Below, in pieces: positions 1-13,356 of a stretch of 23,607 nt of DNA. The position numbers and the translations under genes are program-made. How positions within the stretch are numbered: the first letter of the stretch is position 1; each line of letters opens with the position of its first letter. The notes below the pieces were generated by a model that did no database searches, was not told the DNA's origin, and was given only the letters and a program-made list of their open reading frames with translations. Source of the DNA: PVC group bacterium (lineage in GTDB: Bacteria > Auribacterota > Erginobacteria > Erginobacterales > Erginobacteraceae); the NCBI GenBank assembly GCA_043804695.1, contig JAZDIV010000081.1, positions 1-23,607 of the forward strand, given 5' to 3'.

Positions 1-2
1 AT

Positions 3-752
3 CGTCGTCACAAGCGGGTGGGACATCTCTATCAGGGGAGATACAAGGCGTTTCTGATCGACGCCGATAATTATCTCCTGGCGGTATCACGGTATATCCA
101 TCTCAACCCGGTTCGGATTAAAGCCTATTCAAAGAAGTCGGATCGGAAAATTAAGGATGCCCTTTTGAAATATAAGTGGAGCAGCCTGGCGGGTTATCTC
201 TCAACGAAGAATAAAACGGAGTTTATTGATTATCGAATAATTCTGGATTACATGGGGGGAAATAATCGCACGGGGAGGGAGGCATACCGCAGATTTGTTA
301 CCCGGGAGATTGGCAGGGAAGAGGAGAGTCCGTTAGCAGTGGGAAAGGGGCATGGGATTGTGGGAGATGAGAAGTTCATTGAATGGGTGAAGGAGAGATT
401 TATAAGGAAGGCGGGGACGACGAGAGAACAGCCGGCGAGCAAAGAATTACAAAAAGTATGTAAGCCTGAGGAGTTGATTGAACATTTCGCGCGGTTAAGT
501 GGAATCTCCCGGGAGGAGATTTGCCGGAGAGGGAAGAGATCGGTCGAACGGGCAATGCTGATGGAATTGTTGTATCGGCTTTGTTCGATCGCGCAACCGG
601 AGATCGGAAGATTGGTGGGAGGAATCGACTATAGCGCGGTCAGCCAGGCCCGGAAGAGATTTCAGAAGCGGATGAGGGATAATCCGGAAGCGAGAAGAAA
701 ATTCGAAAAACTAAATGATCAGTTGATCAAATTGTCAAGAGGAAAGATTTGA
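3..752 (+). mobile_element. RAYT / IS200-like Y1 HUH transposase with C-terminal DnaA-C-like HTH, 5'-truncated by the window
   Basis: Frame open from the window edge (RRHKRVGHLYQGRYKA). Motifs RYIHLNPVR (catalytic Tyr region) and YKWSS; C-terminal QPEIGRLVGGIDYSAVSQARKRF helix-turn-helix. The HUH motif would lie upstream of the window. Confidence 0.85.
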
Positions 753-787
753 CCCCAACGGACCCCCCAACGGACCCCAACGGACCC
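751..787 (+). repeat. Short tandem repeat GACCCC(CC)AACG x3 plus a partial copy, starting in the transposase stop codon
   Basis: gaccccaacg gaccccccaacg gaccccaacg gaccc. Confidence 0.85.
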
Positions 788-828
788 GCGCAGATCACGG
801 GCTGACGGTAGGAGATCCTGTGCTGTCC

Positions 829-1080
829 TCAGCCGTGGGCCACGAGCGTACGCAGAGCCCTGTTCACGGACTCAGAGTCCGGGAAGCGAGCCTTCAGGTC
901 TGGGTCAAGCATCACTGCACCATCCTCGATGGTGAAATGGCGCTCCTCCACCGAGCCGTCTGTCTTTGTCATCCGGACCGTGTGACCTGCCCTGTAGGCA
1001 CGGTAGTGCTTGCCTCTGACTCCCCCAGAAAAGTCGTACTCCTCTCTCATTTCCATCGTGTTGTCATCTGATTTGCTCAT
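829..1080 (-). CDS. BrnA-like antitoxin
   Basis: MREEYDFSGGVRGKHY...LDPDLKARFPDSESVNRALR; overlaps the 3' end of the BrnT gene. Confidence 0.75.
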   Translation of the reverse strand: MSKSDDNTMEMREEYDFSGGVRGKHYRAYRAGHTVRMTKTDGSVEERHFTIEDGAVMLDPDLKARFPDSESVNRALRTLVAHG

Positions 1081-1351
1081 CTCTGTAACACTCCTGTTCC
1101 GCTGGCGTTGCCTTGCGGCAGCCGATTATGCGTATATGATCGTGTCTCTCAGTATACCATACCACAACAAATCTCCCTTTTGACGAGAATCCGATGTCAA
1201 TCCATCTGTCTTCGCGCCCCGAATGGTCTGGATCGGGGATCGTTACCGCGAACGGGTCATTGAAGACAGTCTTGCCTTCATAGAAGGTGATCCCATGCTT
1301 CGCCTCATTGCGGCGGGCCTTGTCTTCGTCCCATTCAAATATTAGATCCAT
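1064..1351 (-). CDS. brnT: BrnT family toxin (DUF497)
   Basis: FEWDEDKARRNEAKHGITF...IRIIGCRKAT; start could also be 1357. Confidence 0.85.
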   Translation of the reverse strand: MDLIFEWDEDKARRNEAKHGITFYEGKTVFNDPFAVTIPDPDHSGREDRWIDIGFSSKGRFVVVWYTERHDHIRIIGCRKATPAEQECYRDEQIR

Positions 1352-1418
1352 CACCATCTCTTTCAATGTGAATAGTGTTTTATCCCATCGTGCGGGTCAT
1401 GATGGATAAGACACGGTT

Positions 1419-1619
1419 TTACTCTTCGTCTTTCAGGAAATCGAAAGATGGGGAAGAAGCGGCCATTGCGAGAATATACGTGGTATCCTCATCGATCGGA
1501 GGAGGATTAACAATAATCCTTTTAAAATGATATTCCGATATTTGAGGTGAGGTGTAACTATCCGCTTTCTTTTGAAAACGGATAAGTCGTACCGTATCCA
1601 TTGTTCCGGCTATAGTCAT
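1419..1619 (-). CDS. Small hypothetical protein, possibly antitoxin-like
   Basis: 66 aa ORF with AGGGG upstream and an acidic SFDFLKDEE tail; lies between two TA pairs. Confidence 0.35.
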   Translation of the reverse strand: MTIAGTMDTVRLIRFQKKADSYTSPQISEYHFKRIIVNPPPIDEDTTYILAMAASSPSFDFLKDEE

Positions 1620-1818
1620 GTTTTCTTACCCCCTATCAGGCGCACCATAAATCTCTTATGAAATAACATTGCACCGTCACAAAGAAATTCGAATGAATAA
1701 TTACCCGGTTCCGGGAAGACCAGGTTGCGAAAACAAAAATCCAATTCAATTACGTCATTAGGATTATTAAAATCTACTGGGCCATTAGTTTTTGCGATAG
1801 TTTTTCCGGTCGATTCGT

Positions 1819-2196
1819 TTATGTAGTGGTTGACTCTGGTTGTCCGGTAATTCCCAGCACCTTCGCGGCTGTCTGGAGCTTGCGATCCCTGGTCCAGAGC
1901 GCTACGCGGCTTAACAGTGCCGAAGAGAGGAGATGCACGTCGATCCAGCCGATGCCGCTGCCTTGCAGGCTATGGATCTCGACCAGATGCAGAGCCTCCG
2001 AGTGGGACGCTGCCTTCACGGGCGGCAGCGATGAGAGAAGCGTCATAATCTCTGTCCGGTTGGCGAGGTTCCCGCACGCCAACTCGCCAATAACAAACGG
2101 GTGAGTGGTTACCTCCCCGGCGCCCAGCAAATCGACGAGAAGGGGAATCCCCCGCCGCAGATGATCGACCCAGACCGACGTATCCACCAGGATCAT
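1819..2196 (-). CDS. vapC: VapC PIN-domain toxin
   Basis: MILVDTSVWVDHLR...HPFVIGELACG...IGWIDVHLL...LWTRD. Confidence 0.9.
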   Translation of the reverse strand: MILVDTSVWVDHLRRGIPLLVDLLGAGEVTTHPFVIGELACGNLANRTEIMTLLSSLPPVKAASHSEALHLVEIHSLQGSGIGWIDVHLLSSALLSRVALWTRDRKLQTAAKVLGITGQPESTTT

Positions 2197-2206
2197 GGCG
2201 GCCCTC

Positions 2207-2395
2207 CTACGGTCGGCGGCGCGGGATCGGTCTGAGGTTTTGCTCAGTTCCGCCCAGACGGGCCAGACGCTTTGCGCTCTCCAGCGAGACAAGGGCTTCC
2301 AGACCCATGCGCACCAGAGATGTCTTCTCCTTTACCCCGGTGAGGTTGGCAGCCCGCCTCAAAATCCGATCGTCTATATTGAGAGTTGTTCTCAT
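2207..2395 (-). CDS. vapB: VapB antitoxin
   Basis: MRTTLNIDDRILRRAANLTGVKEKTSLVRMGLEAL, directly upstream of vapC. Confidence 0.9.
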   Translation of the reverse strand: MRTTLNIDDRILRRAANLTGVKEKTSLVRMGLEALVSLESAKRLARLGGTEQNLRPIPRRRP

Positions 2396-2402
2396 ACATA
2401 CG

Positions 2403-2431
2403 AATATGCCTTACCCATACATCATTGGCAA
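2403..2431 (-). promoter_or_regulatory. Putative sigma70 promoter of vapBC (leaderless)
   Basis: Minus strand TTGCCA-17 nt-CATATT, 7 nt before ATG, no SD. Confidence 0.5.
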
Positions 2432-2492
2432 GTGCTTTTTTCTGACATAACGATTTAGGGAGTACTTGAGCAAGAAGCCAAGACATTCCAGT

Positions 2493-3962
2493 TTAATAAG
2501 GTCCGGGGCGGTCTTCCCACCCGCCGGCGACGGGGGCTATCTGATCCAGCCTTTTTTTCCAGAAGAGGTAGAAAGCCACCAGCATGGCCATGAGAAGCAG
2601 GAGGGAGACCTCGTAAATCGAGGCGCGCCACGGATTGCCGGTCAGGTTCATGCCCAGCAGCCCCCCGGCGATGGAGGGGATCAGCCCCAGGCAGGTGATC
2701 ACCGCCAGCATCCTCATCACCCGGTTCATGTTGAGAGAGACGGTGTTGATGGAGAGATCGATCAGGGAAACGATCCTTTCCCTGGTGTTGTCGGAGATCT
2801 CGTACAGGTAGGCGGATTCATCGGAAAGTTTCTTGAACAGGACGAGCTGTTCGCTCCCGGCGCAGTCCAGGGCGACCGCGCGTTCCCGGAGCTCGACCAG
2901 CACCTGGCAGGAGTGGCGAAGGATGTTGTTGATGTCGGTGATCATCCGCTTCAGGGAAAAAGTTTCATCGAGGAAAGACTGCTTCAGTTTCCCCGCCGGT
3001 TCTTCTTCGAGCATGATGGTCTCCTGCTCGATCGCGTCCAGGATGTCTTCGTAATCCCGGTTCTTCAAGGCAAGGATCGAGACCAGGACCTTCAGGCTGA
3101 AGCCTTCGCCTTCCGGCTGCAGCCTGGTTTCAGTCAGCCGCGGCAGCAGGTCGCTGTCCCCGGCGGAAAGGGTCACGATCAGTTTCCCGGAGCAGATGAT
3201 CAGGAAGTTGCCTCTCCGGATGACGAGGTCCCTCACGCCCCCTCCGGCCGTGACCAAGCGCGAGTCCTTGACCAGGATGCTGGTGAAACGGGGGTAGTAG
3301 TCGATCTGGGGAAAGGTCTCCTTGAGCACCTTGCTCTGGAGCTCGAACCCGGGGATCTGGAGAGCGGAGCAGATCGCGTCCAGGTCGAGCGCGGACACTT
3401 CCTGAAGGTCGATCCAGGACGGCGCCGTCCTTTGGGCCAGAGAGGCCAGATCCTCGCGCCGGGAGGGGACCGCTTTCAGGCTCTCGTCGATCAGGGTGAC
3501 CCGCAGGCGCGACTGCGGCGGCGCCGGGGGAGCCCGCCGCCGCGCCGGGGCGGCCCGTCCCACGGTCCTGCCGGCGACAGCGAAGAGACGGCTCAGCCGG
3601 ATCAGCCGGAGGAGCGGGGCGAACCTCCCTCCGCCGGGGATGTCGGGGACGAAGTCGAGCAGGGCGAGAATGACGATGACGAGGTCGAGGAGGTGCCAGG
3701 GGTTCAGGAAAAACCGGCGCCGGTCATCGGCCGCCCACAGCTTGAGGACGTATTCGGCGACGAACATCGCAATGACGAAGTAATTAACGGCGAGGAAGAC
3801 GGTGATGGTGAAGGAGGAGAAGGTGAAGATCAGGGGCAAGAGGGTGGCGGGGATGAGAAGAAGGGCGAGCAGCACCATCAGGTCGTCGCTGAAAACCGCA
3901 TAGATCTTTTTCCGCAGCCTGCTGCGGAGGCTCTCCCCCCGGCCGACGCGATCGGATTCCAT
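2493..3962 (-). CDS. Ion_trans (voltage-sensor-like S1-S4) domain fused to a CorA-family divalent cation transporter
   Basis: N-terminal helices with FVAEYVLKLWAA, FFLNPWHLLDLVIV and S4-like LLRLIRLSRLF. C-terminal CorA features WIDL, MNRVMRMLAVIT and GMN followed by a last TM. GGAG upstream of ATG 3962. Confidence 0.85.
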   Translation of the reverse strand: MESDRVGRGESLRSRLRKKIYAVFSDDLMVLLALLLIPATLLPLIFTFSSFTITVFLAVNYFVIAMFVAEYVLKLWAADDRRRFFLNPWHLLDLVIVILALLDFVPDIPGGGRFAPLLRLIRLSRLFAVAGRTVGRAAPARRRAPPAPPQSRLRVTLIDESLKAVPSRREDLASLAQRTAPSWIDLQEVSALDLDAICSALQIPGFELQSKVLKETFPQIDYYPRFTSILVKDSRLVTAGGGVRDLVIRRGNFLIICSGKLIVTLSAGDSDLLPRLTETRLQPEGEGFSLKVLVSILALKNRDYEDILDAIEQETIMLEEEPAGKLKQSFLDETFSLKRMITDINNILRHSCQVLVELRERAVALDCAGSEQLVLFKKLSDESAYLYEISDNTRERIVSLIDLSINTVSLNMNRVMRMLAVITCLGLIPSIAGGLLGMNLTGNPWRASIYEVSLLLLMAMLVAFYLFWKKRLDQIAPVAGGWEDRPGPY

Positions 3963-4022
3963 ACCTGCTCCAGCGGTAAAGAGTGAATGAAAGGTGAAAG
4001 GCCCACCCGATGTTTGCCGGAA

Positions 4023-4050
4023 AGTATAGCAGAAAATCATTTGCCGTCAA
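4023..4050 (-). promoter_or_regulatory. Putative sigma70 promoter for the sensor-CorA gene
   Basis: Minus strand TTGACG-16 nt-TATACT with extended TGn. Confidence 0.6.
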
Positions 4051-4098
4051 TATGCCCGGGAAACAAAGCATCCCCCGGGGCGGGCTCCCATAAAGAAC

Positions 4099-4128
4099 TT
4101 GAAATCCGCTCCCGTGATGGGGCATAAT
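4099..4128 (+). promoter_or_regulatory. Putative sigma70 promoter for the NtrC-family regulator
   Basis: TTGAAA-18 nt-CATAAT, 10 nt before ATG 4139. Confidence 0.4.
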
Positions 4129-4138
4129 CGGGACCTTT

Positions 4139-5527
4139 ATGAAGGCAGGCAGCGAACAGAACAGGGCCGGCATCCTGGTCGTCGAGGACGATCCGGAGAC
4201 TCGCTCGATGCTGGTCACGGCGGCGAGGTCTTACGGGTACGACGTCGCCGAGGCCGGCGACGGGGAATCGGCCCGGGCCCTTCTGGAGAAGAGGAAATAC
4301 GACCTGGTGATCACCGACCTGGTGATGCCCGGCGTCAGGGGCACGGAACTGATCTCTTTCATCCGGAAGACCGCCCCGGGGAGCGCGGTGGTGGTGATGA
4401 CCGCCCACGCCTCGGTCAAGATCGCCCGGGAGTGCGTGAAAGAGGGCGCCGCCGCTTTTATCGTGAAGCCGTTCACGATGGAGCAGATGCACTACGTGGC
4501 GGAGACCGCCCTGATGGGGAAGAAGCTGATGGAGGAGAAGGAGACCAGCTACGAAGACCTGATCCTGGAGAACAGCTTCTTCGACCTGGTCGGCGAGAGC
4601 GTGGAGATGAAGAAGATCTACCACACGATCCTCACCCTGGCCGGAACCGACAGCCCGGTGGTCATCTGCGGGGAAACCGGGACCGGGAAGGAACTGGTGG
4701 CCCGGGCCATTCACCTGAACAGCGACCGACGGGAGAGGGAGATGCTGGTGGTTGATTGCGCGACCCTCTCCGAACCTCTTCTCCAGAGCGAACTCTTCGG
4801 GCATGTGAAGGGGGCGTTCACCGGAGCGTACAAGGACAGGGAGGGGCTGCTGAAGGCGGGGGATCAAAGCACCATTTTTCTCGACGAGATCAGCGAGATC
4901 AGCCCCCAGTCCCAGGCCAGCCTGCTCCGGTTTCTCCAGGGCGGGGAGTTCCGGCCGGTGGGGGGAACCGGCACGCAGAGATCAAACGCCCGGATCCTGG
5001 CCGCCACCAACGTGAATCTGGAAGACCGGATGGCCGCCGGCGTCTTCCGCGAGGACCTCTATCACCGCCTGAACGTGCTGACCGTCGTTCTCCCCCCGCT
5101 CCGGGAGCGGCGGGAGGACATACCCCTGCTCAGCTATTATTTCCTCAGGAACTTCGCCCGGCAGCAGGGAAAGCCCGTAAAAAACATCTCGTCCGCCGCG
5201 ATGAGCCTCCTGATGGCCGGGCAATGGCCGGGCAATGTCCGGGAACTGGAGAACACGATCGAGCGGGCGGTCACTTTCTGCCCGGCCGACAGCATCCTCC
5301 CCTGCCATCTCTACCCGGGGTCGCCGCCGGCCGGCAACGGGGAGGAGCCCTCCCCGGTCCTGAACCTGAACGACGCGCTCCACCACGCGGAGAAGTCGCA
5401 GATCCTGAAAGCGCTCCGGATGAGCAAGGGGAACAAGCAGAACGCGGCCCGGATGCTGGGGATCGACCGGATCACGCTCTGGCGGAAGATCAAAAATTAC
5501 GATCTGCTGATCCCGCCGTACTCATAA
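4139..5527 (+). CDS. Sigma54-dependent response regulator (REC-AAA+-Fis HTH, NtrC/AtoC family)
   Basis: ILVVEDD and DLVITDLVMPG receiver motifs; GETGTGKE, ELFGHVKGAFTGA, FLDEI, WPGNVREL; C-terminal AARMLGIDRITLWRK. Confidence 0.95.
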   Translation: MKAGSEQNRAGILVVEDDPETRSMLVTAARSYGYDVAEAGDGESARALLEKRKYDLVITDLVMPGVRGTELISFIRKTAPGSAVVVMTAHASVKIARECVKEGAAAFIVKPFTMEQMHYVAETALMGKKLMEEKETSYEDLILENSFFDLVGESVEMKKIYHTILTLAGTDSPVVICGETGTGKELVARAIHLNSDRREREMLVVDCATLSEPLLQSELFGHVKGAFTGAYKDREGLLKAGDQSTIFLDEISEISPQSQASLLRFLQGGEFRPVGGTGTQRSNARILAATNVNLEDRMAAGVFREDLYHRLNVLTVVLPPLRERREDIPLLSYYFLRNFARQQGKPVKNISSAAMSLLMAGQWPGNVRELENTIERAVTFCPADSILPCHLYPGSPPAGNGEEPSPVLNLNDALHHAEKSQILKALRMSKGNKQNAARMLGIDRITLWRKIKNYDLLIPPYS

Positions 5528-5530
5528 TCA

Positions 5531-5649
5531 GCCACTAAGACACCAAGTCACCAAGGGAACCCGAGTAATGAAGGATGAGGATGTCTATTCTGTGTGGATG
5601 CTATCCTTATCTTGTTCATTATTTCTTGGTGTCTTAGTGTCTTGGTGGC
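5531..5649. repeat. Palindromic element with arms of three CACYAAGW octamers
   Basis: 5531-5555 versus reverse complement of 5625-5649: 22/25 match. Confidence 0.85.
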
Positions 5650-5683
5650 ATTAAAGAGTCCCGCTAAGGGGGCGCCCATTTTA

Positions 5684-5767
5684 GCCGGGGTGGTGGAATG
5701 GCAGACACAAGGGACTTAAAATCCCTTGGCACCCAGTGCCGTGCGGGTTCGAGTCCCGCCCCCGGCA
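5684..5767 (+). tRNA. tRNA-Leu (anticodon TAA), CCA not encoded
   Basis: GCCGGGG/CCCCGGC acceptor stem, anticodon arm AGGGA-CTTAAAA-TCCCT, long variable arm, GGTTCGAGTCC T-arm. Confidence 0.97.
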
Positions 5768-5828
5768 TTTTATTTTCATTCCCCCACCACCGTCTCGAAG
5801 GGACGGTGGTGGGGGAATGAAAATAAAA
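5768..5828. repeat. Perfect 27-bp inverted repeat after the tRNA (CCACCACCG family; possible terminator)
   Basis: ttttattttcattcccccaccaccgtc-tcgaagg-gacggtggtgggggaatgaaaataaaa. Confidence 0.85.
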
Positions 5829-5839
5829 ACATATACCAA

Positions 5840-6754
5840 GTGATCAGTGACAACCGAAAAATCGTTGTTGGGTTTAGCCTCGCCCTGCTTTTATTCCTGC
5901 TTGGTTTTGCCGGTCTGTCCACCGCAGATGAAGAAATTGCGGTAATAGACTCGACCGGCACGAAGCTTTCTTTCACTCAACCACCGGAAAGAATCGTCTC
6001 CCTCAACCCCGACTTCACGGAGAACGCGGCCGCGCTGGGCGCCGCCGGGCACCTGGTCGGGATAACCGATTACTGCCGCTGGCCGGAAAAGGCCGCCGCC
6101 CCGAAGCGGGTCGGCGGGCTCTGGCACCCGAACCTGGAACGGATCGTCGCCCTCCGGCCGGACCTGGTGCTGGCCACCCGCGAAGGCAATGACCCTGAGA
6201 CAGTCGCCGCGATCAGGGGCCTCTCCATCTCGGTGTACGTCGCGGGCCCGCCCGCCGGCTTCAACGATTATTTCGCCTTTCTTGGTCAGCTGGGCCTTAT
6301 CCTGGACCGGGAGGCCGAGGCCGGGACGCTGATCGCAAGCATGACGTCCCTGATCGACCGCCTCCGGGCGGAAGCCGCCGGCCGCCCCCGGAAGACCGTC
6401 TTTTTCCAGATCGGGATGAGGCCGCTGATCACGGCGGGGAAAGGCACTCTGATTAATGAGATGATCGACATCGCCGGGGGAAAGAACATTGCCGGGGATC
6501 TGTCCGTCCGCTATCCCGCCTTCAGCCGGGAACGGGTGCTGGCTGCTGACCCGGGGGTGATCATCATCGCCGCCGCCGGGAGCGAGGCGGAGGAGGGGAC
6601 GGCCTTCTGGAAGACATTCCCCGAACTCCGGGCGGTCAGGAGCGGCCGAGTCTTCGCCGTCAACCCGGATGATGTCTGCCGGCTCGGTCCCGGGCTCATG
6701 GAAGGATTGAAGCAGATCGCTGCCTGTATCAGGGGAGAAGGGGATAAAGAATGA
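5840..6754 (+). CDS. btuF: Cobalamin/iron-chelate ABC substrate-binding protein (BtuF-like)
   Basis: Signal peptide; PPERIVSLNPDFTE, VGITDYC, PNLERIVALRPDLV, IAGGKNI, AVRSGRVF. GTG 5840 chosen because the longer ORF overlaps the tRNA. Confidence 0.8.
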   Translation: MISDNRKIVVGFSLALLLFLLGFAGLSTADEEIAVIDSTGTKLSFTQPPERIVSLNPDFTENAAALGAAGHLVGITDYCRWPEKAAAPKRVGGLWHPNLERIVALRPDLVLATREGNDPETVAAIRGLSISVYVAGPPAGFNDYFAFLGQLGLILDREAEAGTLIASMTSLIDRLRAEAAGRPRKTVFFQIGMRPLITAGKGTLINEMIDIAGGKNIAGDLSVRYPAFSRERVLAADPGVIIIAAAGSEAEEGTAFWKTFPELRAVRSGRVFAVNPDDVCRLGPGLMEGLKQIAACIRGEGDKE

Positions 6755-9155: not shown

Positions 9156-9190
9156 ATTATCTGGTGCTTGTTATTTGGGATTTACGCGAG

Positions 9191-10132
9191 ATGACGAAGA
9201 AACGGACATTAAGACAGTCTGAAATGTTTTTATATTTAATTCTACTCATCTTGATTACCGGAAGCGTTCTGGGTTGTTCGATTAAAAAGATGGCTGTCTC
9301 CGAACTCGGCGACGCGCTGGCCGCGGGCGGGGACGTCTACGCCTCGGATGACGATCCGGAACTGGTCAGGGCGGCCTCCCCGTTCAGCTTGAAGCTGATG
9401 GAGAGCCTGCTGGCGGAAGATCCCGAACACCGCGAGCTTCTCCTGGCGGCCGCCCGGGGGTTCACCCAATACAGCTACGCCTTTGTCCAGGAGGAGGCGG
9501 AAGAGACGGAGGAAACCGACCGGGAGCGGTCCGCCGCCCTGCGGGAGCGGGCCCGGCGGCTCTACCTGCGGGCCCGTGACTACGGGCTGCGGGGGCTGGC
9601 GGTCGGGCATCCGGGGATTGCCGAGGAGCTCCGCCGGGAACCCCGCGCCTCCCTAACCCGGACCGGAACCGGGGATGTCCCGTTTCTTTACTGGACGGCC
9701 GTCTCCTGGGCATCGGCCGTCTCCCTTTCCCGGGACGACCCCGATCTGATCGGAGATCTCCCGATCATTGACGCCCTGGTCGAGCGGGCCCTGGTTCTCG
9801 AAGAGGATTTCGGCGCCGGCGCCCTCCATACTTTCCTGATAACCTATGACATGAGCGGGCCGGGCGGGGAGAAAGAACGGGCGGCCCGCGCCCGGGGCCG
9901 CTTCGACCGGGCTGTTGAGCTGAGTTCCGGGGAGCAGGCGGCTCCGTTTGTCGCCCTGGCCGAGGCGGTTGCCGTCCCGGCCGAGGACCGGGAAGAATTC
10001 CGGTACCTGCTCAATCGCGCCCTAACGATCGACCCGGATGAATATCCGGAGCGGCGCCTGGCCAACCTGATTTACCAGCGCCGGGCCCGCCGGCTGCTGG
10101 AACGGGAGGAGGAGCTGTTCCTTGGACCATAG
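9191..10132 (+). CDS. tatT: TRAP transporter TatT component, probable lipoprotein
   Basis: Lipobox-like VLGC; DDPELVRAASPFSLKLMESLL; ARRLYLRARDYG; precedes dctP and dctQM. Start uncertain (9164/9191/9224). Confidence 0.85.
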   Translation: MTKKRTLRQSEMFLYLILLILITGSVLGCSIKKMAVSELGDALAAGGDVYASDDDPELVRAASPFSLKLMESLLAEDPEHRELLLAAARGFTQYSYAFVQEEAEETEETDRERSAALRERARRLYLRARDYGLRGLAVGHPGIAEELRREPRASLTRTGTGDVPFLYWTAVSWASAVSLSRDDPDLIGDLPIIDALVERALVLEEDFGAGALHTFLITYDMSGPGGEKERAARARGRFDRAVELSSGEQAAPFVALAEAVAVPAEDREEFRYLLNRALTIDPDEYPERRLANLIYQRRARRLLEREEELFLGP

Positions 10133-10182
10133 TGACGGGGTAGTCATCACTATGCTCTATTGCAGTATCAGAAAAGGGAAAA

Positions 10183-10312
10183 ATGGAGTGATGGAGTGGT
10201 GGGGTAATGGAGTGGTGGAGTAAGGGGGAGGTGGAGTAATGGAGTGATGGAGTGATGGAAGCCGATTTTGCCGGGCATCGGTCCCCAGTACTCCATCACT
10301 CCAGTACTCCAA
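10183..10312. repeat. Asymmetric palindromic element of RTGGAGTR octamers
   Basis: Nine in-register octamers at 10183-10254 (two degenerate); three inverted YACTCCAN copies at 10289-10312. Confidence 0.85.
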
Positions 10313-10359
10313 CCCTCCCGGCCATTAGCATGGTGTTAATTAAGGGCTATGCGGAATAA

Positions 10360-11394
10360 ATGAAGCCGTACGCGATAATTTTGACAGCCGTTCTTTTTAT
10401 CGGTCTCGGGTTGAATTGCGGCCGGGAGTCGGTAACCTATGCGGCGCCGGCCCGGCGCATCAAGATGACCACGCTCGCTCCCCGGGGGTCGTCCTATTAC
10501 AACTCCCTGCAGAAGATGGGGGACGAGTGGCAGAAGATCTCCGTCGGCGCGGTGAAACTGATCATCTATCCCGGCGGCATCCAGGGCGGGGAGGCGGCGA
10601 TGGTTGACCGGATGCGGGTCGGCCAGAGCCAGGCCGGGATGCTGACGGCGGTCGGCCTGGCGGAGATCGAGCCGGCGGTGAGGGGCCTCAATAGTCTCCC
10701 GATGATCTTCAACAGCCTGGAGGAGGTTGATTACGTGGGCCGGCGGCTCCGGCCGCTGCTGGAGGATCGTCTCCTGAAAAAAGGCTACGTGGTCCTCTTC
10801 TGGGCGGATGCCGGCTGGTTGCGGTATTTCTCGAAAAGCCCGATGATCACCCCGGACGATCTCAAGAAGATGAAGCTTTTCACCTGGGCGGGGTACCCGG
10901 GCCAGGTGGACATCATGAAATCGGCGGGCTATAACCCGGTTCCCCTGGAGACGGGGGACATCCTCCCCGGCCTTCAGACGGGGCTGATCGACGTCGTCCC
11001 GATGCCGCCTTTCTACGCCCTCGCCCAGCAGATCTACACCCCCGCTCCCCACATGCTGGCGCTGGACTGGGCACCGTTGGTGGGGGCGGCGGTGGTCACC
11101 CGGGAAGCCTGGGAGGAGGTCCCCGAGTCCCTCCGGGAGAAGCTGCTGGAGGCGGCGGCCGCGGCCGGAGATGAGATCAAGGCGGCCGGCAGACGGGAGA
11201 ACGACGAGTCGGTCCGGACGATGGAGGAAAAATGGGGCCTGAAGATCCATCCCGTCTCCCCGGAGGTGAAGGAGCTGTGGCGCCGGAGCGTGGAGAAGGT
11301 GTACCCGGAAATCCGGGGCGGGATTGTCCCCGCCGATACGTTCGACGAGGTGGTGCGGCTGCTGGAGGAGTACCGTGGCCGGGATCGTCAGTAG
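10360..11394 (+). CDS. dctP: TRAP substrate-binding protein DctP (TatP type)
   Basis: IKMTTLAPRGS, IYPGGIQGGE, TPDDLKKMKLF, LQTGLID. Confidence 0.9.
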   Translation: MKPYAIILTAVLFIGLGLNCGRESVTYAAPARRIKMTTLAPRGSSYYNSLQKMGDEWQKISVGAVKLIIYPGGIQGGEAAMVDRMRVGQSQAGMLTAVGLAEIEPAVRGLNSLPMIFNSLEEVDYVGRRLRPLLEDRLLKKGYVVLFWADAGWLRYFSKSPMITPDDLKKMKLFTWAGYPGQVDIMKSAGYNPVPLETGDILPGLQTGLIDVVPMPPFYALAQQIYTPAPHMLALDWAPLVGAAVVTREAWEEVPESLREKLLEAAAAAGDEIKAAGRRENDESVRTMEEKWGLKIHPVSPEVKELWRRSVEKVYPEIRGGIVPADTFDEVVRLLEEYRGRDRQ

Positions 11395-11475
11395 TCTTCC
11401 TCGGGCGCCGCCGCGTCGGCGCCCCTCGCCCGCGCGTTTCCCTCATATCCGGAATCCGCGGTGGAAGGGCATGAA

Positions 11476-13356
11476 ATGACAGAAAACTTCCGCCAGGCTG
11501 ATGACGGGTCGTCCCCCCGGGCGGCCGGAAAGCCGCCCCGGTTCGTCTGGCTGCGCGCCGGCGAGAACCTTCTTCTCATCCTGGCGCTGGGGGCGATGGC
11601 CGTCGTCCCCCTGGCGGAGATCGTGCTGCGCCGGTTTTTTCATACCGGCATCTCGGGGGCGAGCCCGATCGTGCAGCACCTGGTGCTGGTTGCCGGAATG
11701 CTGGGCGGGGCGGCGGCGGCCCGGGCGGGCCGCCTGCTCTCCCTCACCACCATAACATCCGTCCTCCCTCCCGGCCTCCGGGTTGCCGCCCGGGTGCTCA
11801 GCGCCGCTTTTGCCGCCGGGGTCACCTCTTTTCTCTGCCTGGGCAGCATCCGGTACATCGAGGTCAGCCGGGAGGCCGGGAAGATACTGGCCTACGGCGT
11901 CCCCGTCTGGGTGGTCCAGCTGGTCCTCCCGCTCGGCTTTGCCGCGATCGCGGTCCGGCTTATTCTCCGCGTGTCCGCGCGGTGGACCGTCCGGGCGGCC
12001 GTCTTTCTCCTGGCCGGGGGCCTTTTCCTGGTCGGCCTCGCCCCGCCGGTCCCCCCCGCCGACCTGGTGCTCCCGGCCCTGGTCTTTCTGATCCTGTCGG
12101 CGCTGCTGGGCGCGCCGATCTTCACGCTCCTGGGGGGGGCCGCTTTGATCCTTTTCTGGGGGGAGGGGAGCCCGATCGCCTCGATCGCGATTGATCATTA
12201 CCGGATGTCGGTCAACCCCTCGCTCCCGGCCATCCCCCTTTTTACCCTGGCCGGCTATTTCCTGGCCGAAGGAGGGGCGTCCCGGAGGCTGATCCGGGTT
12301 TTCCAGGCCCTGGTCGGACGTTTCCGGGGCGGCCCGGCCATCCTGAGCGCCCTGGTCTGCGCTTTCTTCACTTCTTTCACCGGGGCGTCGGGCGTGACGA
12401 TCCTGGCCCTGGGAGGGCTGCTGCTCCCGGTTCTCCTCGCGGCCGGGTATTCCCGGCGGAACGCGGTCGGCCTGCTCACCGGGTCCGGATCTCTCGGGGT
12501 GCTCTTTCCCCCCTGCCTGCCCCTGATCCTTTACGCGATCGTGGCCTCGACGATGGGTTCGCCCGTCACCATCAGGCAGATATTTTTAGGCGGCCTCATC
12601 CCGGGGCTGCTTCTGGTGGGGATGACCGGCTGGTGGGGTCGCTGGGCGGCGGGGAAAAAAGAGACCGGCTCCCACCCCCCCCGCTTTGACCCCCGGGAAG
12701 CCGGCCGGGCGATCCGGGCGGCCGGGTGGGAACTCCTCCTGCCGGTGGTCGCCCTGGCCGCGCTCTTCGGGGGGTTCGCCACGCCGGTGGAAGCCTCCGC
12801 GGTGACGGCGCTCTATGCTTTTATCGTGGAGACGTTCGTGTACCGGGACCTGAAGATGTTCAGCGATGTCCCCCGGATGATGACCGAGTGCGGGCTGATC
12901 ATCGGGGGGGTGCTGATGATCATCGGGGTGGCGATGGGTTTCACTAACTACCTGATCGACGCCCAGATCCCCGCGCAGGCGGTCGAGTGGGCGACCGGCT
13001 CGATCCACTCACCCTGGCTCTTCCTCCTGATCCTCAACCTGTTTCTCCTGGTGGTCGGCTGCCTGATGGACATCTACTCCGCCATCATCGTCGTGGTCCC
13101 CCTGATCGTCCCCCTGGGGGATGCCTTCGGGATCGATCCCGTCCATCTCGGGATCATCTTCATGGCCAACCTCCAGCTCGGCTATCTCACCCCCCCGGTG
13201 GGAATGAACCTCTTCCTCGCCTCGTACCGGTTCAACCGGCCGATGCCGGAAGTGATCCGGGCGGTGATCCCGATGTTTCTGGTTCTCCTGGTCGGGGTGC
13301 TCCTGATCACCTACATCCCCGTTCTCACCACCCTGCTTCCCGGCCTGTTCCCCTAA
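11476..13356 (+). CDS. dctM: Fused TRAP small and large permease (DctQ-DctM)
   Basis: N-terminal DctQ-like TMs; AIPLFTLAG, SGSLGVLFPP, ATPVEASAV, GIDPVHLG, YLTPPVGMNLF. Confidence 0.9.
   Translation: MTENFRQADDGSSPRAAGKPPRFVWLRAGENLLLILALGAMAVVPLAEIVLRRFFHTGISGASPIVQHLVLVAGMLGGAAAARAGRLLSLTTITSVLPPGLRVAARVLSAAFAAGVTSFLCLGSIRYIEVSREAGKILAYGVPVWVVQLVLPLGFAAIAVRLILRVSARWTVRAAVFLLAGGLFLVGLAPPVPPADLVLPALVFLILSALLGAPIFTLLGGAALILFWGEGSPIASIAIDHYRMSVNPSLPAIPLFTLAGYFLAEGGASRRLIRVFQALVGRFRGGPAILSALVCAFFTSFTGASGVTILALGGLLLPVLLAAGYSRRNAVGLLTGSGSLGVLFPPCLPLILYAIVASTMGSPVTIRQIFLGGLIPGLLLVGMTGWWGRWAAGKKETGSHPPRFDPREAGRAIRAAGWELLLPVVALAALFGGFATPVEASAVTALYAFIVETFVYRDLKMFSDVPRMMTECGLIIGGVLMIIGVAMGFTNYLIDAQIPAQAVEWATGSIHSPWLFLLILNLFLLVVGCLMDIYSAIIVVVPLIVPLGDAFGIDPVHLGIIFMANLQLGYLTPPVGMNLFLASYRFNRPMPEVIRAVIPMFLVLLVGVLLITYIPVLTTLLPGLFP

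Follow-up and report, generated by a model that had tools for sequence, protein, structure and literature searches.

Voltage-sensor domains (VSDs) control tetrameric cation pores, themselves in the case of Hv1, and a phosphatase. In SLC9C1, the sperm Na+/H+ exchanger, the VSD lies behind the transporter domain and works jointly with a domain that binds cyclic nucleotides. According to the abstract of the SLC9C1 structure paper, no other transporter is known to be under the control of VSDs. For CorA, transport is stated in a section of a review to depend on membrane potential (PMC9276622). The 23,607-nucleotide contig JAZDIV010000081.1 (assembly GCA_043804695.1, a PVC group bacterium of the Auribacterota), which we call the window, carries a gene in which these two kinds of module are joined. 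The gene encodes a six-helix membrane protein composed of an intact VSD (residues ~26–137), a Pro/Arg-rich linker of conserved length that is predicted to be disordered, and a complete CorA body. This is a new architectural variant uniting two well-known modules. The architecture suggests a so far unstudied kind of voltage-controlled metal-ion channel, and we estimate at roughly 60% the probability that the protein forms a pentameric divalent-cation channel of the CorA type in which membrane voltage biases opening, judging from its sequence and the features set out below. No description of a VSD–CorA fusion was found in the full-text literature; subscription journals, supplements and TCDB or InterPro notes lie outside that scope and may hold one. 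Public annotations of the homologues read ‘ion transporter’ or ‘CorA’.

The two halves of the protein are identified by Pfam on one chain, both above their cut-offs and at scores that chance does not explain. Ion_trans (PF00520) matches residues 30–129 with profile positions 7–111 of 241, the S1–S4 half only (E = 2.6e-13; 50.2 bits, cut-off 25), and CorA (PF01544) matches residues 182–471 with positions 5–292 of 292, the whole model (E = 8.5e-33; 114.4 bits, cut-off 27). The NCBIfam models score far lower: corA (TIGR00383) reaches 66.4 bits against a cut-off of 200.75, and the model of the methanogen hyperpolarisation-activated K+ channel reaches 19.7 bits against 300. NCBIfam thus files the fusion protein as an equivalog of neither parent family. 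A full-length AlphaFold2 model, built from an alignment of 115 rows, has a predicted local distance difference test score (pLDDT) of 86.5 and a predicted TM score of 0.70, with four N-terminal helices. The six helices make a coherent topology, since both the end of S4 and the CorA N-domain fall on the cytoplasmic side. A sequence-only reading of the window had named S1–S4-like helices with the motif LLRLIRLSRLF, a Pro/Arg linker and a full CorA body with GMN, and had seen neither an S5–P–S6 pore nor a K+ filter. All of these elements are borne out. The motif spans residues 117–127, with arginines at 119, 122 and 125; the stretch that follows it is RAAPARRRAPPAPPQS; and G437-M438-N439 closes the first of two C-terminal helices. 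No S5–P–S6 pore follows S4 in the fusion protein, since Ion_trans matches no further than profile position 111 and residues 154–480 are CorA, and neither GYG nor GFG occurs in it. The placing of S1–S4 in front of CorA is thus real, and the homologue survey and conservation counts given below show it to be recurrent and under selection.

Residue conservation is the strongest argument that the N-terminal module would be a real voltage sensor. It was counted over 115 full-length family members with 19–81% identity to the query. F67 in S2 is present in all 115; E70 in the same helix is Glu in 108 and Asp in 5. In S3, D93 is kept in 110 members and W89 in 98. The S4 arginines are conserved at R119 (109 members), R122 (106), R125 (94) and R113 (74), and R132 at the end of the helix is Arg in 98 and Lys in a further 8. 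At least three basic residues among positions 113, 119, 122 and 125 are found in 97 members, and 90 combine F67 with the two acids and the three core basic residues. From work on Kv and Nav channels, we take the positions of F67, E70 and D93 to be the gating-charge transfer centre.

Residues 1–140 match the sensors of solved channels by sequence alone. The best match is Cav3.2 (E = 3.3e-14); Cav3.3, Nav1.5 and Nav1.7 also match, followed by mouse Hv1 (3wkv, E = 2.6e-5) and by NavMs and NavAb (E about 1e-3). In an AlphaFold2 model of the VSD alone (overall pLDDT 69.5), S4 is a helix from 114 to 137; in the full-length model, it is broken into helices 115–120 and 124–130. Among the Foldseek matches listed for the VSD-only model (ranks 1–50), all are VSD proteins, with probabilities of 0.97–1.00. 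The best size-normalised match is the isolated Ci-VSP sensor (4g7v_S), with TM scores of 0.68/0.70 and an rmsd of 3.1 over 130 columns.

The presence of Hv1 among the sequence matches would fit a VSD that is itself a pathway for protons or other ions, as in Hv1 and in omega-current mutants, with H+ movement coupled to divalent-cation transport. Such a reading draws on the CorA superfamily, some members of which (ZntB) are said to be proton-driven. Hv1 has its selectivity Asp in the core of S1 (Asp112 in human Hv1). In the present family, the S1 core (positions 28–42) has no conserved acid: Asp or Glu is found in 0–6 of the 115 members, and in none of them at 12 of the 15 positions. The Phe of the hydrophobic plug is invariant, which points to a sealed sensor, and the Nav and Cav sensors outmatch Hv1. 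We regard a proton path as quite improbable, and the ‘pH-coupled’, Hv1-like option that the sequence-only reading had left beside membrane potential finds no support.

The linker differs from the sensor in what is conserved. Counting from R125 to the first CorA strand (residue 154), 63 of the 115 members have 28 residues and 109 have 27–30; the sequence in between shows no conservation. Residues 133–143 have pLDDT values below 50 in the full model, in which the linker appears disordered. A length that is fixed with a sequence that is free suggests a mechanical or geometric constraint on the linker. Voltage control might alternatively be exerted by direct packing of the VSD on the outer ring of TM2, the second transmembrane helix (TM) of CorA, as in non-swapped channels, the tether being a mere connector. 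Both the end of S4 (A-x-G-R132) and the Gly-Trp after TM2 (G481-W482; 109 and 110 members, respectively) are conserved and should sit at the inner membrane surface; the disorder of the linker also agrees with such an arrangement. A mere connector leaves the conservation of linker length unexplained, and we think it unlikely that packing on TM2 is the whole route.

The C-terminal part of the protein is a complete CorA body in both model and alignment. Foldseek matches the model to the CorA structures of Thermotoga maritima (TmCorA) and Methanocaldococcus jannaschii with E about 1e-14 and TM scores up to 0.77 (normalised by target), and residues 27–351 of TmCorA (3jcf_A) align with a profile built from 33 members of the family (E = 3e-33). 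TM1 carries the conserved residues N406, M416, A420, P429 (115 of 115) and G434. The pore motif GxN is retained, with G437 in 112 and N439 in 111 members. The query has GMN, and the middle residue in the family is Met in 65, Glu in 19, Val in 10, Gln in 9, Ser in 7 and Ile in 2 members, a variation that hints at differing ion selectivities within the family. Behind GxN, the loop has three residues fewer than in canonical CorA and contains NPW. The C-terminus of the query is atypical. In 32 aligned homologues, the chain ends two (25 homologues) or three (7) residues past the conserved Gly-Trp behind TM2; in the query, RLDQIAPVAG is inserted ahead of this Gly-Trp, and seven further residues come after it. 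Residues 481–489 have pLDDT values below 50.

The acids of the Mg2+-sensing sites of TmCorA are absent. E88, D89, D175 and D253 of TmCorA align to Q209, S210, A298 and K378 in the profile alignment, and the positions equivalent to D89, D175 and D253 are acidic in 7, 12 and 4 of the 115 members. The same genome contains two canonical CorA paralogues (256 and 224 bits), which serve as an in-genome control; both keep D89, D175 and D253, together with the loop of MPEL length. In a review table, the D253K mutant of TmCorA is entered as ‘constitutively open’ (PMC9276622).

From these features, we infer pentameric assembly, voltage gating (with opening on either depolarisation or hyperpolarisation), a coupling route and a transported ion. 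The fusion protein would assemble as a CorA-like pentamer, with the TM1 helices forming a pore for divalent cations; because of its GMN motif, Mg2+, Co2+ or Ni2+ would be expected for this member. Five peripheral VSDs would make opening voltage-dependent, displacement of S4 shifting the cytoplasmic domains towards a locked or a relaxed arrangement. As the route of coupling, we put first the tether of fixed length, which would hand S4 movement on to the cytoplasmic N-domain; contacts between the VSD and TM2 in the membrane may add to it or act in its place, and if voltage does control the channel, we weigh the tether and the in-membrane contacts roughly equally. The N-terminal domain on which the tether would pull is the domain whose inter-subunit locking gates canonical CorA. 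Since the Thermotoga-type Mg2+-feedback acids are absent, control would fall in large part to voltage. The most specific form of the proposal, which we advance tentatively and hold to be somewhat more likely wrong than right, is that of a first voltage-gated channel on a pore that is neither tetrameric nor of the voltage-gated ion channel type. In it, five sensors would pull fixed tethers on the cytoplasmic gating domain, voltage would replace Mg2+ feedback, and the GEN, GQN, GSN and GVN members would carry other cations.

Several observations weigh against voltage control. Confidence in the models is lowest at the S4 helix (pLDDT 66–68 in the full and 55–60 in the VSD-only model), and the Foldseek search with the VSD-only model gives no match at E ≤ 0.001, the best having E = 0.023. 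In 25 of the 115 members, the full VSD set is short of one or more residues. Force passes poorly along a disordered linker unless the linker is taut. No neighbouring gene is conserved among the open reading frames (ORFs) within 5 kb of the gene in 28 loci and the window, when these are clustered, and no partner in an operon is evident. As to the lost acids, M1-site mutants of TmCorA are described, in a part of PMC8865849, as still able to reach a closed state. Acids are also conserved nearby: D381 in 89, E382 in 83 and D221 in 92 of the 115 members, D381 and E382 lying one helical turn from the lost-acid position; because of these, another Mg2+ site is possible. Eight Met-starting, apparently complete CorA relatives that have no VSD (P0128, P0132, P0133, P0138, P0140, P0156, P0165 and P0181; 308–343 residues) likewise lack the D89 and D253 acids, and seven of them have the short NPW-type loop, P0181 being different. 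The loss therefore belongs to a CorA subtype and need not follow from the fusion; these relatives possibly represent the subtype that gave rise to it.

The same observations can be read in another way, with S1–S4 as a structural membrane module for anchoring, assembly, localisation or lipid sensing, gating left to cytoplasmic cations alone, as in other CorA proteins, and voltage being no physiological signal. D381, E382 and D221 could then form another cation site; VSD-less relatives of the same CorA subtype do exist, and the disordered linker and the 25 incomplete residue sets also speak for this reading. An anchor would need no invariant Phe, no acids in S2 and S3 and no three or four spaced S4 arginines maintained across 19–81% identity, and a linker held to its length while its sequence drifts speaks for a mechanical or geometric constraint. 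We consider a purely structural role unlikely and retain the voltage-biased CorA channel as the better reading.

The fusion recurs widely. In a search of a collection of 5.8 billion proteins, both Pfam families were found in 41 of 42 matches of similar length, the query included, at 29–81% identity; the sole exception, P0023, starts inside S3–S4 and is a truncated gene call. HMMER over 1.84 billion representatives gave 1131 matches at E ≤ 0.001 and 82 at E ≤ 1e-30, and most of the top rows span query residues from about 10 to 470 in a single stretch. When 76 full-length proteins were scanned with Pfam (the query and 75 representatives at 50% identity), CorA was present in 76 and Ion_trans also in 70. 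The ESM Atlas holds three clusters with both families (89, 51 and 222 members). All 28 shorter database matches that were scanned have the sensor half of Ion_trans only, and 9 also have a partial CorA; they therefore look like fragments of the fusion rather than other architectures. The ESM Atlas also contains a 550-residue ‘CorA’ cluster from Nitrososphaerota that aligns structurally to residues 22–476 of the query and has Pfam CorA only; the N-terminal part of these proteins may be a diverged membrane module. When one genome per species was scanned, 29 loci came up, a selection skewed by the two peptide patterns that were searched. Two of these are in two frames: L023:320-1794, from a Chloroflexi metagenome-assembled genome (MAG), and L030:5848-7429, from a Methanoregulaceae MAG. 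The frameshift falls within S4 in L023 and within the CorA N-domain in L030, so that we rejected both as natural split forms; they are either pseudogenes or assembly indels. Five short pieces from two DNA contig sets (shares 0.09 and 0.06) match the fusion gene at 85–100%, and none spans the VSD–CorA junction; no RNA set was listed, and the pieces carry no weight for expression or read support.

This recurrence bears on the idea that assembly or gene calling has joined two separate genes. Nothing was found in its favour, the 2 split copies among the 29 loci owing their state to frameshifts that do not coincide with the domain boundary, and dozens of independent assemblies, drawn from several sources, show the same colinear architecture. 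An assembly artefact is refuted for practical purposes, and we give artefacts of either kind next to no probability; the fusion is by no means unique to its source assembly.

The archaeal loci come from Candidatus Methanoperedens, Methanocellales, Methanoregulaceae and Methanothrix, and the bacterial loci from Dehalococcoidia and other Chloroflexota, a Victivallales bacterium, ‘Bacterium UASB14’ and unclassified bacteria. The family is found mainly in anaerobic archaea and bacteria. Closer to the window, its distribution is patchy: among 41 genomes searched (its own and relatives), the fusion gene is present in 3. Apart from its own genome, it is found in 0 of 1 of the same genus, in 0 of 8 of the same family (that genus genome included), in 2 of 2 of another family of the same order and in none of the others. 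In a midpoint-rooted tree of 27 rows (three rows left out, two cut), the window groups with two unclassified bacteria (support 100/100), and this group is nested in a clade (100/99) that mixes bacteria, Methanocellales and Methanoperedens, which fits transfer between domains. The fusion gene is an accessory paralogue beside the two ordinary CorA genes of its genome and was probably acquired horizontally.

The coordinates given for the gene in the sequence-only reading are correct (Table 1). In the ORF list of the window, positions 2493..4040 (−) form one open frame of 515 residues, with the stop codon at 2493–2495. A start at 3962 gives the 489-residue protein and agrees with the N-termini of homologues in their alignment. 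It is also favoured because the promoter-like element upstream overlies the alternative ATG at 4040, and the GGAG 5 nt ahead of the ATG at 3962 fits it as well. A scan of 2300–4250 for such promoter-like sites gave 3, with 0.4 expected from shuffled sequences. No sigma-54 −24/−12 element was seen by eye in the 176-bp intergenic region upstream of the fusion gene, and Rfam (E ≤ 1, window positions 1–6000) returned only tRNA and chance-level matches, with no riboswitch or other RNA upstream of the gene. On the opposite strand, 2466–3986 (+) is a 506-residue ORF that mirrors the fusion gene; its translation is of low complexity and rich in Gly, Asp, Glu and Pro, which makes a shadow frame, arising from a GC-rich gene, likelier than a second gene.

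Table 1. Features of the fusion gene and its surroundings in the window (residue numbers refer to the 489-residue protein)
Feature	Position	Strand	Basis or remark
VSD–CorA fusion, whole coding sequence	2493..3962	−	489 residues + stop; ORF list, translation, Pfam Ion_trans + CorA on one chain
S1 helix, residues 26–45	3828..3887	−	AlphaFold2 helices; core without conserved acid
S2 helix, residues 50–77, with charge-transfer-centre F67 and E70	3732..3815	−	AlphaFold2 helix, conservation
S3 helix, residues 88–104, with W89 and D93	3651..3701	−	Conservation
S4 helix, residues 113–137, basic at 113, 119, 122, 125, 132	3552..3626	−	AlphaFold2, conservation
Pro/Arg-rich linker, residues 138–153	3504..3551	−	Sequence variable, length nearly fixed
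CorA cytoplasmic alpha/beta domain and helices, residues 154–369	2856..3503	−	Pfam, Foldseek, profile alignment
Stalk helix into pore-lining TM1, residues 370–437	2652..2855	−	AlphaFold2 helix 370–437
GMN motif, G437-M438-N439	2646..2654	−	Between helices 370–437 and 449–480
TM2, residues 449–470	2553..2618	−	AlphaFold2 helix 449–480; aligns to TM2 of TmCorA
Atypical C-terminal tail, residues 471–489	2496..2552	−	10-residue insert before conserved GW, then extension
Sigma-70-like promoter: TTGACG, 16-nt spacer, TG, TATACT	4023..4050	−	10/12 matches, TG-extended −10; consensus match only
GGAG ribosome-binding site	3968..3971	−	5 nt upstream of ATG at 3962, read from sequence
BrnT-family toxin	1064–1366	−	Directly on downstream side of fusion gene
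PIN/VapC	1819–2292	−	Type II toxin–antitoxin, downstream side of fusion gene
VapB	2207–2395	−	Partner of VapC
NtrC-type sigma-54 response regulator (receiver, AAA+, HTH_8)	4139–5527	+	Divergent from fusion gene
tRNA-Leu(TAA)	5684–5767	+	Between sigma-54 regulator and ABC transporter genes
TRAP-type transporter set: TAtT-family protein, DctP solute-binding protein, fused DctQ-DctM	9164–13356	+	

The G+C content over positions 1001–3000 (0.47–0.58) is lower than in most of the window. Together with the toxin–antitoxin modules and the patchy distribution of the fusion, this could indicate an acquired island. A BtuF/FecCD-type ABC transporter lies beyond the tRNA-Leu gene; the ORF of its periplasmic binding protein starts at 5726 and overlaps the tRNA, so the true start must be later. 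The only neighbour cluster that recurs in the comparison of loci is generic and ABC-ATPase-like (8 loci), all others being found at no more than 4 loci. BrnT, VapBC, the sigma-54 regulator, tRNA-Leu and the ABC transporter do not recur beside the homologues.

The protein is of high interest for channel biophysics. If voltage control is true, the S1–S4 sensor would be a portable prokaryotic module able to gate an unrelated channel architecture, and its attachment to a CorA pore of five-fold symmetry would add a solution that works by different mechanics. Such a protein would also offer a natural test of coupling from S4 to a gate without an S4–S5 linker. The fusion would bear on CorA gating, since the residues of the usual Mg2+ sites are absent from it, and on cation entry under changing membrane potential in methanogens, Methanoperedens and Dehalococcoidia; a link to their demand for Ni and Co is speculation. 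Being small (489 residues), well predicted and represented by many homologues, the protein is experimentally tractable.

In fold and order of elements, residues 154–480 resemble CorA of T. maritima (4i0u, 3jcf and 3jcg) and M. jannaschii (4ev6). The alpha/beta domain, stalk helix, TM1, GMN, TM2 and a basic C-terminal end with Trp are common to both, and the TM1 pattern M-R/K-x-L-A/T...P...G-x-x-G-M-N is present in canonical CorA and in the fusion. Unlike TmCorA, the fusion adds a predicted four-helix sensor at the N-terminus and a tether and has Ser, Ala and Lys in place of D89, D175 and D253. Its shortened post-GMN loop has NPW for the MPEL type of canonical CorA, and the middle residue of GxN, normally an invariant Met, varies in the fusion family. 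With NavAb and NavMs, Cav3, Nav1.x and Kv channels, the fusion shares the F-x-x-E of S2, the Asp of S3 and the R-x-x-R-x-x-R of S4. It differs from Ion_trans channels in having no S4–S5 linker helix, S5, P-loop or S6, and its pore comes from an unrelated, pentameric family, whereas theirs is tetrameric. Like Hv1, which its sensor matches in sequence, it has a VSD without a separate pore of the VSD's own; unlike Hv1, it has no conserved acid in the S1 core and does have a separate CorA pore. Like SLC9C1, it carries a VSD on a transport protein without the tetrameric pore of voltage-gated ion channels. SLC9C1 is a dimeric secondary transporter of animals, whereas in the fusion, which is prokaryotic, the VSD comes first and its partner is of a pentameric channel type. 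As in Ci-VSP, a pore-less VSD is joined through a post-S4 linker to a cytoplasmic effector; in the eukaryotic Ci-VSP that effector is an enzyme, whereas in the fusion it is a channel body that re-enters the membrane.

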